Positions 16,778 to 28,036 are shown, counted from the stretch's first letter. The stretch: 33,924 bases of DNA from Christensenellaceae bacterium (GCA_031255215.1 JAIRSY010000052.1:1-33924), one strand, 5' to 3'. Program-made: numbers and translations. The notes: generated by a model not told the origin, from the sequence alone.

Positions 16778-19700
16778 ATGGCAATAAATTTGAAACAAAC
16801 GGGAGAGTTTGTAGATAAATACGGAAAAACGGATAGGCACGTTTTTCGGCGTGTTCCGGAATTATTAGAAGTGCCGAACCTTTTGGATGTTCAAAGGGCG
16901 AGTTTTAATCGTTTTCTTGAAAATGGGATAAAGGAAGTTTTTAACGAATTCAACCCAATAATTGATTACTCGGGAAAGATTGAGGTTTGGTTCCTCGATT
17001 ATCATCTTGAAAACGATTCTAAAAATTATTCGGAACAGGAATGCCTACGCCGCGGCGTTATGTTTACCAAATCCTTGAAGGTAAAAGTCAGGGTCTTGAT
17101 AAAGGATAGCGGGGAAATCATTGAGCAGGAAGTGTTTTTGGGCGACGTTCCTATGATGACGGAGGGCGGATATTTTATTGTGAACGGAGTGGCGAGGGTG
17201 ATTGTAAATCAAATTATAAAGTCCCCGAGTGTTTATTATAAGACGACGCAGTATACGAACAAGGCTACACTTTCCGCAAAAGACATTACATGCACGCTTG
17301 AACCCGCACATGGGGCATATATAGAGATTACAAAAGACATGAAAGATGTCCTGCATGTTTCCCCGAATAAGACGCCGAAGATGACCTTGGGAGTTTTTCT
17401 GCGAGGGCTTGGTTTTGGTTCCGATAATGAAATTCTTGAATTGTTTGGACATCATCCTTTAATAAAGAATACTCTTGACAAAGATAAAGATAAAAGTAAA
17501 GAAAAAGACCTTGAAATGACAAAAGAGAAAGCACTTTTGGAAATAAGCCGAAAGATGCGTCCAAGCGAACTTCCCAATGCGGGTGCGATGGAAAATGCAC
17601 TCAACAATATGTTCTTTACCTTTCCAAGTTATGATTTATCTTCGGTTGGAAGATATAAATTCAACAAGAAGTTGGGACTTTTGGGCAGGATAATAAATGA
17701 AATCGCCGCCGAAGACATAAAGGTTAACGGGAAAGTTATAGTAAAAAGAGAGGAAGAAATAACGAAAGAGACCGCGGAGAAGATTGTCGGGGCGGGTATA
17801 AACAGGATATCTATACTTAACAAATTCGGTAATGCCGTATTGGTGATAGGTAATGGGCAGAGGACGGAACGTCATCTTACAAAAGATGACATTGTCGCCG
17901 CCGTGTCTTATTATTTGAACTTTATGGATGATGTAGGGTCAAAGGACGAAATTGACCACCTTATGAATAGGCGTCTCAACATGACGGGCGACCTTATGAC
18001 GCGGCATTTCAAGGACGGAATGCTTAAACTTAGAAATTCTATACGTGAAACAATGCAGACCATGGATATAAACAGTAAACAAATAAATCCGATTTCCATT
18101 ATAAATGCACGGCCGATAACGAGGGCGCTCCGTGATTTTTGTGCGGTTTCGCAGCTTTCTCATGTTATGGACACAAACAATCCTCTTACGGAAATTACAC
18201 AAAAGAGGAAGGTCACGGCGGTCGGGCCGGGCGGAATAATGGAGAAGAAGAGGGCGACGGCGGAGGTTCGCGACCTTCATTTTTCTCACAATGGCCGTAT
18301 TTGTGCCGTGGAAACACCGGAGGGGCAGTCCATCGGGCTTGTAAACTCCCTCGCTATGTATGCGAAAATAAATCAGTATGGCTTTATTACCGCTCCGCTT
18401 CGACAAGTTGATAAAAAAAGCGGAAAAGTTACGGACAAGGTGGACTATCTTACCGCCGATGAAGAGGACGCCTTTTATATTGCACAGGCAACGGAACCGT
18501 TGAAGGCCGACGGAACATTAAAAAACGAATACATTGTTGTCCGTCATAGAGATTTGGTAATGGAGGTGACAAAGGACAGAGTAGACTATATTGATGCAAG
18601 TCCAAGGCAGTTTATTTCCTTGTCCACGGCGTTGATTCCGTTTCTTGAAAACGACGATGCCGGCCGTGCCTTATTGGGTTCAAATATGCAAAGGCAGGCG
18701 GTTCCGCTTATAAAAACGGAGGCACCGATTGTGGGGACGGGTCTTGAACATCGTGCCGCCCTTGATTCCGGTGCCTTGGTTGTTGCAAAAAATGACGGTA
18801 TAGTTACCTCCGTTACATCCGAAACAATTGAAATTCAAAGGGATTTGGATAAGAATAAAGATATTTATAAACTTATCAAATTATCACGGTTCAATGAGGA
18901 GGCTTGTGTAAATCAAAAAGCGATAGTGAAAAATGGGGATAAAGTAAAGAAAGGTGACGTCATTGCGGATGGCTATGCGACCGATAACGGTGAATTGGCA
19001 ATCGGCAAAAACATGTGTGTTGCCTTTATGAATTGGGAAGGATATACCTTTGAAGATGCGATTTTAATAAGTGAGAGGGTTGTAAAGGAAGATAAATTTA
19101 CATCTATTGCCCTTCATTTGAAAGAATGCCGTGCAAGAATAAACCCAAAGATAGGCGACGAAGAAATCACTCGTGATATTCCCAATTTAAGTGATGATGC
19201 ACTTGCGAATCTTGATGAAAGGGGAATCGTTCGAATAGGGACATTTGTAAGGACGGGCGATATACTTGTTGGAAGGGTTACCCCAAAGGGCGAAACGGAA
19301 ATGTCGCCGGAAGAGAAGTTGTTAAAGGCGATTTTTGGGGACAAAAGCCGTGACGTTCGCGATACCTCTCTTCGTGTTGAAAACGGTAAAGAGGGTGTTG
19401 TTGTCGGGATAGAGGTTTTCAGCCGAGAGAACAAGGATGAACTTGACGTCGGGGTAAATGAATTGGTTAAGGTGATTATCGCACAAAAACGCAATGTAAA
19501 GGTCGGCGATAAAATGACCGGCCGTCACGGAAACAAGGGTATTGTTTCAAAGATATTGCCGGTTGAGGATATGCCTTACATGGCGGACGGCACACCGGTA
19601 GATATAATATTGAATCCTATGGGCGTCCCGTCACGTCTTAATATTGGGCAATTATTGGAAATCTCGCTCGGCTTAATCGGTCATATAACGGGCAATAAAT

Positions 19701-20431
19701 ATGCCACTCCCGTCTTTAATGGTGCGACAAGAGCGGACATTTCAAAACTCCTTCGCGAAAACGGACTTCCCGAAGATGGTAAAATGCAGCTGCTTGACGG
19801 GCGGACCGGCGAACCGTTCCAAAATAAAACTACCGTCGGCTTTATGTATATGTTGAAACTTCATCACATGGTAGATACAAAAATCCACGCACGAAGCACC
19901 GGTGCTTATAGTTTAGTTACCCAGCAACCTCTTGGCGGAAAAGCCCAATTCGGCGGTCAAAGAATGGGTGAAATGGAACTTTGGGCGTTGGAGGCCTACG
20001 GTGCGGCACATCTTCTTCAAGAAATTCTTACCGTCAAGTCCGATGATATCCAGGGACGGACCAAAACTTTTATGTCAATAGTAAAGGGCGAACAACTTCC
20101 TTCCCCCGGTATGCCCGAGGCTACAAAAGTTATGATTAAGGAACTTCAAGGTCTTGCCTTGGATGTGACCATGTTTACAAAAGAAGGTGTTGTTGATACG
20201 AAGGATATCTCTACGGCTTTAAGTGAAATTGATGATGTGTCAAAGGATGGACAGCCGGTCGATGACGTTGATATAAATGCACTCTTCGATAATACCGATA
20301 ATCTTTCATCATCCGCAGGCTTGGAACCGGATACGCAAGATTATGAAACATTTGATATTAACGCAATGTTTGACGATGATGACGGCAAAAACGATAATGA
20401 TGATGACAATAATGAAGAGGAGGACAGATAA
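16778..20431 (+). CDS. rpoB: RNA polymerase beta subunit
   Basis: [53 protein letters not shown]; acidic C-terminal tail. Confidence 0.99.
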
Positions 20432-20433
20432 TT

Positions 20434-23400
20434 ATGTTTGAATTAAATAATTTTGAGAGCGTAAGAATAAGTTTGGCAAGCCCGAACAAGATTTTATCTT
20501 GGAGTCACGGCGAGGTTACAAAACCTGAAACCATCAATTACCGGACACAAAAACCGGAAAAAGACGGTCTTTTTTGTGAGCGTATTTTTGGGCCGAAAAA
20601 AGATTGGTGCTGTGCTTGCGGCAAATATAAACTTATCCGTTACAGAGGAACGGTGTGTGACAGATGCGGTGTTGAAGTTACAAAGAGCTCCGTTCGCCGG
20701 GAAAGAATGGGGCATGTTCAACTTGCCGCACCGGTTACCCATATTTGGTATTTCAAAGGAATTCCGTCTAAAATCGGCACTCTCTTGGGTATGACTATAA
20801 AAAGTTTGGAACATGTTATCTATTTTGTGTCATTTGTCGTTATCAATCCCGGAAGCACCCCCCTCAAATATGCTCAAATTTTAAGTGATAATGAGTTGCA
20901 GGACGCACTTGAAAAGTATGGACCAAAGGCGTTTGATTATGGAATGGGTGCAGAATCCATAAAAAAGATGTTGGCGGCACTTGATATAGACAAGGAGATT
21001 GAAGATTGCCGTATTATGATAAAAGAGGTGAAGAGCGGTCAGAAGCGGGATAAAGCGATAAAAAGGCTTGATTTACTTCAATCATTTAAGGAGAGCGGCA
21101 ACCGTCCCGAATGGATGGTGTTGGACGTTATTCCCGTTATTCCGCCCGAACTTCGTCCTATGGTTCAAATTGACGGCGGACGTTTTGCCACCACCGATGT
21201 CAATGAACTTTATCGGCGTGTTATTAACCGAAACAATCGTTTGAAAAAGTTGATTGACCTTCAAGCACCGGAGGTAATTATCCGCAATGAAAAAAGGATG
21301 TTGCAGGAGGCGGTCGATGCCCTTATTGATAATGGCAAGCGTGGGAAGTCCGTGCAGAATAACAAGGGGAGAGAACTTAAATCTCTCGCGGCCGGTCTTC
21401 GCGGAAAGCAGGGACGGTTCCGTAATAACCTTTTGGGAAAACGTGTCGATTATTCCGGCCGAACCGTAATTGTTGTCGGCCCCGAACTTAAACATTACCA
21501 GGTTGGTCTTCCAAAAGAAATGGCACTTGAATTATTCAAACCTTTCGTAATGGAACGTCTTGTCAAAAATCAACTTGCAAATCATAGCCGTTCCGCGAAA
21601 AGAATGATTGAAGCGGAAAAGGACGAGGTATGGGATGCCTTACAGGAAGTAATCAAGGACCACCCGGTTTTATTGAATAGGCAGCCAACACTTCATAAGT
21701 TATCAATTCAGGCGTTTGAACCGGTTTTAATTGACGGCAAGGCAATCCGCCTGCACCCCCTTGTATGTCCGGCGTTTAATGCGGACTTTGACGGTGACCA
21801 AATGGCGGTTCATGTTCCAATTTCACCGGAGGCACAGGCGGAGGCACGGATTTTGATGCTTTCTTCTAATAATATTTTGAAACCAAGTGACGGAAAGTCC
21901 ATTGTGACGCCGACACAAGATATAGTTTTGGGGTGTTATTATCTTACAACAATGGTTGATAAGGCGGAAGGTCACGGTAAGACTTTCAAGAATGAGGACG
22001 AGGCACTTCGGGCGTTTGATGCCAAAAAAATTGATTTACGTGCAAAAATCTTTGTCCGTCGCTCTGCATTTGAAATAGATGGGAATATGGATGAAGAGGA
22101 AACATTTGGAAGGGTGGAGACAACGATCGGCAGGATTCTTTTCAATCGTTGTTTTCCGCAGGATATTGGAATACTTGACAGAAGTAAAAAAGAGAACAAA
22201 TTTGCGTATCAAATAAACAAGGATATTGTGAAAAAAGACTTAAATAAAATTATCGTTAAAACTTTTGAAAGACATGGTCCCACAACGACAAGTGAAACAA
22301 TTGATAACATAAAAAACATTGGGTTTAAGTATTCTACGCTTGCCTCTCTTTCATTTTCAATTTTTGATGCGAATGTGCCTAACGAAAGGGCAAAAATAAT
22401 TAAGGATACGGAATTGAAGGTCAAGGCGGTCGAAAACGGCTATGCCGACGGCGATTATACTCTGTCCGAAAAAATTGACCTTAATATTGAACTTTGGGAT
22501 GAGGCGGCGAAAAATATTGAAGACAAGGTTACGGATTCGCTTAGTCCTGAAAATCCAATTTTAATGATGGCAAAATCCGGTGCAAGAGGTTCAATAAAAC
22601 AAATTATGCAGCTTATCGGTATGCGTGGAATTATCGTGAACGTTTTGGGAACGAAGGAAGACGTCCCGATAAAGGGCTGCTATATCCTCGGTCTGTCTCC
22701 ATTTGAATATTTCCGTTCCGCACGTGGCGGCCGAAAGGGTCTTGCGGATACCGCGATGAGAACGTCCGATGCCGGATATTTGACAAGACGTTTGGTTGAT
22801 GTCGCACAAGACGTGATAGTAACGGAGGAGGATTGTTTTGCCTTCTTGAACGAAAAACCGCGTGGTTTGGTTATACGCAAGTTTGATGTCGACGGTTATA
22901 CGGAGAGTTTGGCAAGCCGAATCACCGGACGCTATACCTCAAAAATGATTCCTAAAATAATTGCGGAAAATGAAATGATAACCGATGAAATTGCCGCCAA
23001 AATAGAAAATGCAGGCATAGAGGAGGTTGAAATACGAACCATTCTCACCTGCAAATGTAAACATGGTGTTTGTGCCAAATGTTATGGCCGTGATATGAGT
23101 AATAATCAAACCGTTCAGGTCGGCGAAGCGGTGGGAATCATCGCGGCACAATCCGTCGGGGAGCCGGGAACCCAACTTACCATGAGAACTAAACACGGCG
23201 GCGGAACAAAAGATACCGCCGGTCTTGTCGGGATGCAAAATATTTTGAAAAACATAAGTTACATGGCGGCGGATTTGGGTGCCTCGGACTCCGCCGTAAT
23301 TATAAAAGAAGAGGGGCTTCCTCGGGTAGAAGAAATTTTGGAGGCACGTCTTCCCAAAGGGGCGGCAATTATGTCAAACGTATCGGGTGAAGTGATTGAA

Positions 23401-24033
23401 ATCAGGCGTGCCGATAAATCCCAAGAAATCGTCATTCGAATCGGTGTAAAAACTCATGAGACTTATAAAATTCCGTTTGGTATTAAGATAATTGTGAAGA
23501 AGGGTGACAAGGTTGAACCGGGTTCGACGTTGACCGATGGCGTCGCCAACCCGCACGATATCTTGAAAACCCGCGGTCTTAAAACCGTTCAGGAATATTT
23601 AATGACCGAAATTTTGAAGGTATATAAGACCCAAGACATCGAAATTAACAACAAACATCTTGAAATAATCGTTCGGCAAATGCTTCAAAAAGTCAAGGTG
23701 GAGGACCCGGGCGAAACCAACCTTCAACTTGGTTCCGTTATTGATGCCGTTGAATTTGAGGCAATCAACATGTCTGCAATTCAAGAAAACAAGAAACCCG
23801 CACGTGCCGCAAGAATTTTGATGCCGATTACAAAGGCCGCCTTGCGAACGGACAGTTTCCTTTCCGCGGCATCATTTCAAGAAACAAGTTCAGTCCTTGC
23901 CGATGCGGCGGTAAAAGGCAAAGTTGACAACCTTATCGGTATTAAGGAAAACGTCATCTTCGGCAAACTTATTCCTGCGGGAACCGGACTTAAACGTTAT
24001 CGAAATGTCGGTTATAAGGTGGTGAAACAATGA
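20434..24033 (+). CDS. rpoC: RNA polymerase beta' subunit
   Basis: KPETINYRT, zinc finger, [42 protein letters not shown]. Confidence 0.99.
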
Positions 24034-24635: not shown

Positions 24636-25568
24636 ATGGTTTATGTCCTCAATTATGGCTGTCGTGTGAATTATTATGAAAGCGAGCAGATTGCGGCAAA
24701 ATTCAACGGAGTTGTCATAGTGGAAAAAGACATTAAGAAGATCAAGGACGCCGAGCCCGTCTTTTTTGTCAATTCATGTGCGATTACTTCCAAGGCGGAA
24801 AAAGGTTCACGGTATGCCGTTTCAATCATAAAAAAATATCACCCGAATGCGGAGATAAATTTTGTTGGCTGTGCCTCTAAACATCAAAATAAATTAAACA
24901 ATGCAATAATTGCGAAGAGGGAGAAAGCATTTATAAAGATCCAGGACGGCTGTGCCGATTTTTGTTCCTATTGTATAATTCCCTATATAAGGTCAAAGAT
25001 CTGCTGCCGCAATGTTGCCGATGTTCTTGCCGAAATCAAGGCACAGCCGCCGGTTGTTAAAACGATAATTCTCTCCGGAATCAACTTGACCTATTATAAA
25101 CATTTGAACGAACTTTCTCAAAATATCAATAAACCGTTTTATTTTGGAAGTTTAGAACCGAATTGTATAACGAAAGATTTTTTAGAGGTTTTGCACGCAA
25201 ATTCAAACTTTATCCCCAACTTTCATGTGTGTCTTCAATCCGGATGTGATGAAACCCTTTCAAATATGAATAGGCATTATACAACCGCGGAATATCTTGC
25301 AAAGATAAATTTGATAAGGAAGTATTTCCCGACGGCGAGGATTTCAACCGACATAATCGTTGGATTTCCAACCGAAACGGATATAAATTTCGACCGGACC
25401 TTGCACTTTATTAAAATAATTAACTTTGATAAAGTCCATATCTTTCCGTTTTCGCCGCGTCCAAAAACCGCCGCTTTTTTGATGAAACCCATCACCAACA
25501 GAATTATTAAAAATAGGGTTGACAAGCTTAAAAGTCTATTGTATAATGATAATGAAAAAAAGAAGTGA
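24636..25568 (+). CDS. mtaB: tRNA methylthiotransferase MtaB-like, shortened, no TRAM domain
   Basis: UPF0004 cysteines (GCRVN, NSCAIT, VGC), radical SAM KIQDGCADFCSYC, LQSG..MNRHY, TDIIVGFPTET, HIFPFSPRPKT. Confidence 0.8.
   Translation: MVYVLNYGCRVNYYESEQIAAKFNGVVIVEKDIKKIKDAEPVFFVNSCAITSKAEKGSRYAVSIIKKYHPNAEINFVGCASKHQNKLNNAIIAKREKAFIKIQDGCADFCSYCIIPYIRSKICCRNVADVLAEIKAQPPVVKTIILSGINLTYYKHLNELSQNINKPFYFGSLEPNCITKDFLEVLHANSNFIPNFHVCLQSGCDETLSNMNRHYTTAEYLAKINLIRKYFPTARISTDIIVGFPTETDINFDRTLHFIKIINFDKVHIFPFSPRPKTAAFLMKPITNRIIKNRVDKLKSLLYNDNEKKK
25519..25547 (+). promoter_or_regulatory. Consensus SigA promoter of the infC operon, inside the mtaB 3' end
   Basis: TTGACA-17 bp-TATAAT. Confidence 0.85.
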
Positions 25569-27466: not shown

Positions 27467-28036
27467 ATGAGCGGACATAATAAATGGAGTAAGATTCACC
27501 GAAAAAAAGGTGAGGCGGACGCCGCCAAGGGCAATGTCTATGCAAAACTTGGCAAGGAAATCTTTGTCGCCGTGAAACAGGGTAAGTCCGCCGACCCCGA
27601 ACAAAATTCTAAACTTCGCGAACTTATATCAAAGGCACGAAATGTCAATATGCCCAATGCCAATATTCAACGTGCCGTTCAAAAGGCCGTCGGCGACTCC
27701 GCCTCAAATGATTATGAATATATAACCTATGAGGGTTATGGTCCCGTCGGCGTTGCCGTTTTAATTGACTGCCTTACCAATAATAAAAATAGAACCGCCG
27801 CGAATATAAGAAGTTACTTTGAAAAAAGCGGTGGTTCCTTGGGCGTTTCGGGTTCCGTTTCGTTCCTTTTTGATGAAGATTTTGATGATGACGGCGAGAC
27901 GATTATCAAAGTGCCGAACTATTTCGTATCTATACCGGAGGAAAAAGAAAAGGCATTTGAGAAGTTGCTTGAAAATTTGGAAGAAGATGAAGATGTAGTA
28001 AATTTTTATCATAACGGAAGTGACAATGAGCAATAA
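27467..28036 (+). CDS. YebC/PmpR/TACO1 family protein with internal deletion (189 aa)
   Basis: MSGHNKWSKI, YEGYGPVGVAV, TNNKNRT, GSVSFLF, LEEDEDV..FYHN. Confidence 0.92.
   Translation: MSGHNKWSKIHRKKGEADAAKGNVYAKLGKEIFVAVKQGKSADPEQNSKLRELISKARNVNMPNANIQRAVQKAVGDSASNDYEYITYEGYGPVGVAVLIDCLTNNKNRTAANIRSYFEKSGGSLGVSGSVSFLFDEDFDDDGETIIKVPNYFVSIPEEKEKAFEKLLENLEEDEDVVNFYHNGSDNEQ

Follow-up and report, generated by a model that had tools for sequence, protein, structure and literature searches.

The RNA polymerase of an uncultured Clostridia-type bacterium appears to combine two changes of different age in the trigger loop of its β′ subunit, RpoC. The first is a lysine next to the catalytic histidine, shared by a clade of related genera, and the second is an expansion of the loop tip that looks private to a single lineage. 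The rpoC gene seems to be real and functional, and the reading that we hold with fair confidence is that the extra residues form a tolerated, flexible tip loop which possibly shifts the folding of the trigger loop. All cellular RNA polymerases rely on the trigger loop as their mobile catalytic element and, to our knowledge, the tip of this loop is the sole site at which bacteria tolerate insertions, those known being large domains made of sandwich-barrel hybrid motifs (SBHM). The gene lies in a window of 33,924 nucleotides, the whole stretch of DNA that was analysed (Christensenellaceae bacterium, GCA_031255215.1 JAIRSY010000052.1:1-33924), and its host genome is referred to here as G000.

The trigger loop of RpoC

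The rpoC gene occupies positions 20434..24033 on the plus strand and encodes a β′ subunit of 1199 aa, along which the Rpb1 Pfam domains 1–5 are found (PF04997, PF00623, PF04983, PF05000 and PF04998, with E-values from 1e-81 to 6e-12). It starts directly downstream of the end of rpoB (16778..20431, plus strand), an ORF for a β subunit of 1217 aa with six Rpb2 Pfam domains and an acidic tail at its end, and this rpoB–rpoC order fits a bacterial RpoC. The best PDB matches in phmmer searches are Clostridia-type and Bacillus β′ chains (E = 0), and the catalytic NADFDGD motif, N449–D455, is invariant in an alignment of 66 sequences.

The translation of 23161–23340 (plus strand) given by the first-pass annotation was reproduced exactly and falls inside the single open frame 20434–24033. 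In RpoC numbering, the trigger loop reads M917-R918-T919-K920-H921-G-G-G, followed by 36 residues, T925–E960, and then by G961 onward. The N-terminal trigger helix (23158..23205, plus strand; residues 909–924) keeps the catalytic residues Met917, Arg918 and His921, as had been claimed, and the conserved C-terminal trigger helix (23314..23349, plus strand; residues 961–972) starts with GLPRVEE. Between the two helices lies the tip segment (TKDTAG...IIKEE; 23206..23313, plus strand), where 36 residues are found in G000 and 8–9 in 28 relatives, a net gain of 28 residues or 84 nt. The same length difference emerges from the phmmer alignments with PDB β′ chains, which cover query residues 1–925 and 960–1196 and so split the query at 925/960, where the chain residues are only 6 apart (943/950 in 8i23_D, 916/923 in 7l7b_D), indicating about 28 extra residues in the trigger loop of G000. 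The insertion of some 28 aa described earlier, with 36 residues standing for 8, is thus upheld. Furthermore, the MRT-to-GLPR spacing is 41 in G000 versus 13 (71 proteins), 14 (35) or 16 (13) among 119 database matches. Chance is no issue here, since this is a specific, in-frame difference of 84 nt in a highly conserved gene. A Pfam scan of RpoC returned no family covering the insertion.

The loss of a DITQ motif had also been pointed out, and it is confirmed in the following form. The Thr of the (D/N)IT motif just before GLPR is present in 65 out of 65 aligned homologues and is replaced by Glu in G000 (Thr959 equivalent), and the Ile that precedes this lost Thr is out of register.

Distribution of the insertion

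The rpoC gene was taken from 40 related genomes and its trigger loop was read in 29 loci, including that of the window. None of the 28 relatives carries the insertion, and neither does any of the 120 nearest database matches, 119 of which were judged by motif spacing and one, P0037, by eye. A further 400 genomes of the family were sampled, of which 360 matched a 91-residue trigger-loop query (361 of 401 with G000 itself). Among the matches listed, those of all genomes but G000 stop at query residues 31–37 with at most 48.6 bits, and G000, with 180.6 bits over residues 1–91, gives the sole match that spans the insertion. The best database match to the 91-residue region is 49–54% identical. Additionally, back-translated scans of a genome-contig and a metagenome-contig collection found no relative of the 50-residue trigger loop, and an exact 63-nt word of the insertion had 0 matches in the metagenome-contig collection. 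The proposal that the insertion is lineage-private agrees with the lack of another carrier among the 28 relatives, the 120 database matches, the matches listed for the 360 family genomes and the two contig-collection scans.

Protein P0037 (1171 aa, from a single-member cluster) presents a different change, TMQTKH, in which the conserved Arg is a Gln; either a sequencing error or genuine variation could explain this.

With regard to the lineage itself, the RpoC of G000 is 73–75% identical to those of 14 genus-mates, which are 87–100% identical to each other. The insertion is the sole sizeable indel in this comparison, the others affecting one residue each, apart from a scattered deletion of 6 residues around residue 840. 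The 400 conserved C-terminal amino acids of RpoB show a similar divergence, with 83–84% identity for G000 versus 98–100% among the genus-mates, and the long branch of G000 therefore appears to be genome-wide. In a quick RpoC tree, built on an alignment from which loci L020 and L029 were left out by an ORF filter, G000 branches off as sister to all other members of the genus and has a terminal branch of 0.43. As the sampling holds no sister species, the insertion may be old and private in appearance only.

The lysine before the catalytic histidine

Lys920 (codon AAA, 23191..23193, plus strand) takes the position of F935 in Escherichia coli β′. The sequence KH occurs in 18 of the 29 trigger-loop loci. 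All 14 genus-mates carry it without the insertion, in the form MRTKHSGG-IAVSNITE (or a one-residue variant)-GLPRVEE, and Lys-His is also present in three further genera of the family. Phe is kept in two genera of the family and in all ten other families of the order, several of these Phe relatives matching exactly the Firmicute form that the first-pass annotation had quoted. In the 119 nearest database proteins whose motif could be recognised, KH occurs 45 times, FH 70 times, IH twice and FQ twice. On the quick tree, 17 KH rows, comprising the genus and two other genera, form a clade with a support of 100, and one further KH row sits on a long branch placed elsewhere.

The substitution of Phe by Lys that had been noticed before the His is therefore present, but it is shared by insertion-free relatives, which makes it an inherited trait of the clade and not a remodelling specific to this genome. 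On the sequences compared, the Phe-to-Lys change is older than the insertion, and the two changes differ in age. E. coli F935 is counted, with M932 and H936, among the trigger-loop residues that stabilise the incoming NTP in published structural work. A clade with Lys at this position is the better-supported and more easily testable item of the two.

A separate variant of the motif was seen in locus L020 (genome G019, same family, another genus), where Gln stands in place of the catalytic trigger-loop His (TFQSGG / TFQTGG); P0072 and P0090, 2 of the 119 database matches, present the same replacement.

Comparison with known trigger loops

The closest counterpart of the insertion by position is SI3 (β′ In6). 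Both elements interrupt the trigger loop at its tip, where they lie between the two helices and a short way past the catalytic His: the G000 insertion starts 4 residues after His921, and SI3 is reported as residues 943–1130 of the E. coli subunit, with H936 as the catalytic His. Owing to this site, both must move with trigger-loop folding. As published, SI3 consists of 2–5 sandwich-barrel hybrid motifs, measures 188 aa in E. coli, occurs in Proteobacteria, cyanobacteria and other phyla, moves with the folding of the trigger loop and modulates pausing; SBHM insertions are reported to be absent from Firmicutes. The G000 insertion, at 28 residues, is about one seventh of E. coli SI3, with no SBHM detected, and whereas SI3 is conserved across phyla, the insertion is confined to one genome (0 of 28 relatives, and the sole span among the family matches listed). 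An SI3- or SBHM-type domain was considered for the insertion and rejected, the net 28 residues being too few, with no Pfam family and no predicted strands (pLDDT < 40). The insertion is SI3-like in topology only and is not a member of the SI3 family. A short, unrelated insertion in a Firmicute-type enzyme would mean that the SI3 site accepts other sequence.

The insert-free trigger loops of Firmicutes and Clostridia (PDB 8i23, 7l7b and 6wvj) have the same β′ architecture and length class and near-identical flanking helices. They differ from G000 in having about 6–9 tip residues and a Phe before the His, where G000 has 36 residues and a Lys. The G000 insertion is in this respect a minimal natural test of the effect of loop length alone on trigger-loop folding. 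A search of a limited collection of papers found neither a short trigger-loop insertion described for Firmicutes nor a clade with the Phe-to-Lys change.

Another case of natural trigger-loop variation in an otherwise conserved RNA polymerase is that of Deinococcus and E. coli, in which substitutions in the trigger loop tune RNA cleavage and are proposed to alter its folding and proofreading (Esyunina et al. 2016, PMC4756841). These are point substitutions accompanied by biochemistry, whereas G000 presents an insertion and a clade-wide Phe-to-Lys change.

Structure and possible role of the insertion

The AlphaFold2 model of full-length RpoC, made with 65 homologues, has a mean pLDDT of 64.9 and drops below 50 at residues 909–962, and the model of a 251-aa fragment from the bridge helix to the trigger loop, made with 23 relatives, drops below 50 at residues 143–219. 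In both, the trigger loop has a pLDDT of 22–39 and no secondary structure, so the models are uninformative on its fold and a flexible loop is the default reading. The amphipathic helix that had been suggested was not recovered: the best 18-residue hydrophobic moment of the insertion, 0.40, was reached by 11.7% of 5000 shuffles, and AlphaFold2 gave no secondary structure, with pLDDT values below 40. We infer that the insertion is a flexible or weakly structured loop devoid of an SBHM fold.

The sequence of events may have begun with the Phe-to-Lys change beside the catalytic His, which is the older one and common to the clade of related genera, followed by the lineage-private expansion of the tip from 8–9 to 36 residues, a few residues from the SI3 site, which would have been fixed on a long, fast-evolving branch. 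Since the two trigger helices run next to each other where they join the tip, the extra residues would be directed towards the solvent and would not necessarily prevent the helices from forming. The intact Met, Arg and His, together with the fact that this is the only rpoC found, suggest that the enzyme stays functional. The main effect, if any, would be a higher cost of closing the trigger loop into the trigger helices, and this cost would be increased further by the loss of the Thr and of an in-register Ile where the second helix begins. Nucleotides would then be expected to be added somewhat more slowly, with changes in pausing or in intrinsic cleavage. The replacement of this conserved Thr could also impair catalysis more than is assumed here.

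An adaptive regulator is no more likely than a largely neutral passenger that drift has fixed in a lineage with a small genome. An insertion of the regulatory kind, which we consider improbable, would be a small folded element, such as a helical hairpin, docking on modules of the polymerase or on a factor and tuning pausing, fidelity or Gre access in concert with Arg751-to-Ile, Leu757-to-Phe and Lys920. Its location at the same topological site as SI3 and its high codon-usage score (given below) would fit such a role. On the other hand, AlphaFold2 predicts no fold, the helical amphipathicity does not rise above that of shuffles, Lys920 predates the insertion, and the insertion has no homologue by which its conservation could be gauged.

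The two substitutions invoked by this regulatory reading are located in residues 751–757 (codons at 22684..22704, plus strand), just N-terminal of the bridge helix, a segment which we take to be the F loop. Arg751 is changed to Ile and Leu757 to Phe, both in columns with at least 97% agreement in 65 homologues. Along with Ile908-to-Val and the Thr-to-Glu change, they bring to 4 out of 10 the conserved-column changes that fall in the F-loop/bridge-helix/trigger-loop region, which holds 65 of the 399 conserved columns. This clustering favours a regulatory role, but it is not significant (Fisher one-sided p = 0.0625) and the region was picked after seeing the data. A remodelled active centre, claimed earlier with the help of changes in RpoB, is therefore weakly suggested at best. 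The Lys is clade-wide, and the RpoB tail is found order-wide. From the sequence comparisons, such remodelling of the G000 polymerase is suggestive at most.

The tail in question is a long stretch rich in Asp, Glu and Asn at the end of RpoB (20140–20431). Acidic tails of 74–118 residues after an ELQ(G/S)L motif are present in relatives across the order, and the RpoB tail is consequently not specific to G000.

The presence of greA, which the first-pass annotation had proposed to check, was borne out by a GreA homologue of 167 aa on another contig of G000 (L031:1246-1749, contig C36), whose N-terminal domain matches with E = 3.4e-21. Its C-terminal domain is divergent and scores 18 bits, where the Pfam cut-off is 26.9. 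The presence of GreA and the divergence of this domain are in line with the regulatory role discussed above.

Origin of the insertion

There is a hint, at the level of the DNA sequence, that the insertion was born by a local, in-frame tandem duplication. The 31 codons at 23221–23313 share 41 of 93 bases (44%) with the adjoining 31 codons at 23314..23406 (plus strand), which are a possible, weakly indicated source of an old duplication. This offset of +93 gives the highest identity among the 642 offsets compared (mean 25.9%, sd 4.5%; codon-shuffle p = 0.0007), as would be expected if the segment encoding the second trigger helix had been tandemly duplicated in frame long ago. The offset of 93 differs from the net insertion of 84. 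At the protein level, a local alignment of the insertion with its flanks was not significant, its score being reached by 578 of 2000 shuffles, and against an HMM of the post-GLPR segments of 147 relatives the insertion did not outscore shuffled sequences, standing at line 1894 of a 4705-line table that covered the insertion and 5000 shuffles. The in-frame peptide had only weak tblastn matches (best E = 0.032). The single Rfam match (E = 0.25) was far below the gathering score and lends no support to a reading as an RNA element.

Short direct and inverted repeats of 11–17 nt surround the insertion, some at offsets of 68 or 69, none of them convincing. One is a GC-rich direct repeat of 13 nt, identical at 12 of 13 positions, between the 5′ junction (23193–23205) and 23261–23273, 68 nt inside the insertion and in a different frame; it could be due to chance or to microhomology.

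A more ambitious possibility, and in our opinion a doubtful one, is that we are looking at the birth of a trigger-loop insertion, in which a short, non-SBHM duplication at the SI3 hotspot was fixed in a Lys-bearing Firmicute-type RNA polymerase and measurably retunes folding, pausing or cleavage. If this were true, it would be the first functional trigger-loop insertion that is short and not a domain, and the Lys clade would represent a natural variation on NTP recognition.

Authenticity of the insertion and of the gene

G000 is a metagenome-assembled genome of 706 kb in 71 contigs, 86% complete, and an artefact therefore had to be weighed. The sequencing runs containing this DNA carry the label termite gut metagenome, and no RNA run is listed among them. 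The 84 extra bases might in principle come from a chimeric assembly path or a rare variant in the library, foreign to the real rpoC of the organism, and the insertion is indeed a singleton in a fragmented assembly, at a low depth of about 7, with no homologue anywhere in the sequences searched. Against this, run X1 has a Logan contig, made by a different assembler, of 2832 nt at a depth of 6.9, which spans the insertion and 1 kb of its flanks (22700–23900) with 0 differences and 0 gaps. Since X1 is the likely source run, this contig represents a second assembler on the same reads and not independent DNA; the insertion, for which the first-pass annotation had asked for a check with reads, is in this manner backed by a second assembly.

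The composition of the insertion also argues against an artefact. It is in frame and open within rpoC, and, read in the frame of rpoC, it scores +18.0 bits for codon usage, compared with 12.8 ± 5.5 in 36-codon windows of rpoC and −21.2 to +3.5 in the other five frames of the insertion. Its GC content is 44% vs 43% for rpoC. No second copy of the insertion DNA exists elsewhere in G000, so that it is not copied from other DNA of this genome, and the identity to its flank is only 44%, where duplication errors of an assembler would give near-identical repeats. The trigger-loop insertion is probably real in the sample DNA, and an assembly or library artefact is very unlikely.

Other contigs of the same runs were inspected over this region. 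Runs X2 and X3 hold no contig covering 23220–23394. A 280-nt contig of X2 covers 22943–23219 with 18 differences and ends 14 nt into the insertion, and a 642-nt contig of X2 resumes from 23395 onward; they belong to a relative about 90–93% identical, found in another sample from the same study. Additionally, an X1 contig with a depth of 4.96, retrieved at a min_likeness of 80, joins 23360 to 23512 and skips 151 bases; it is probably the rpoC of another organism.

Turning to the gene as a whole, G000 has one rpoC match, its 1199 codons are free of stops and frameshifts, and only 10 changes, mostly conservative, are found at columns at least 97% conserved in 65 homologues. These observations suggest that the organism most likely lives on this RpoC, the 86% completeness of the genome leaving narrow room for a second copy. 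A decaying or redundant rpoC, under relaxed selection while another copy does the work, would account for the long branch and the lost Thr959 equivalent in an incomplete genome, but it is disfavoured by the single intact match, by the conservative nature of the changes and by the similar divergence of RpoB from the same operon, which makes the branch length genome-wide, and we give it next to no credence. The rpoC of G000 is most probably a genuine single-copy gene of an uncultured, deep-branching, small-genome bacterium of the Clostridia type.

Two further ORFs of the window are short for their families. The ORF at 24636–25568 encodes a MiaB/RimO-like radical-SAM protein of 310 aa with the UPF0004 and Radical_SAM domains and no further domain match, and the ORF at 27467–28036 encodes a YebC/TACO1-like protein of 189 aa. 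A reduced genome in which genes have shrunk may account for their length.
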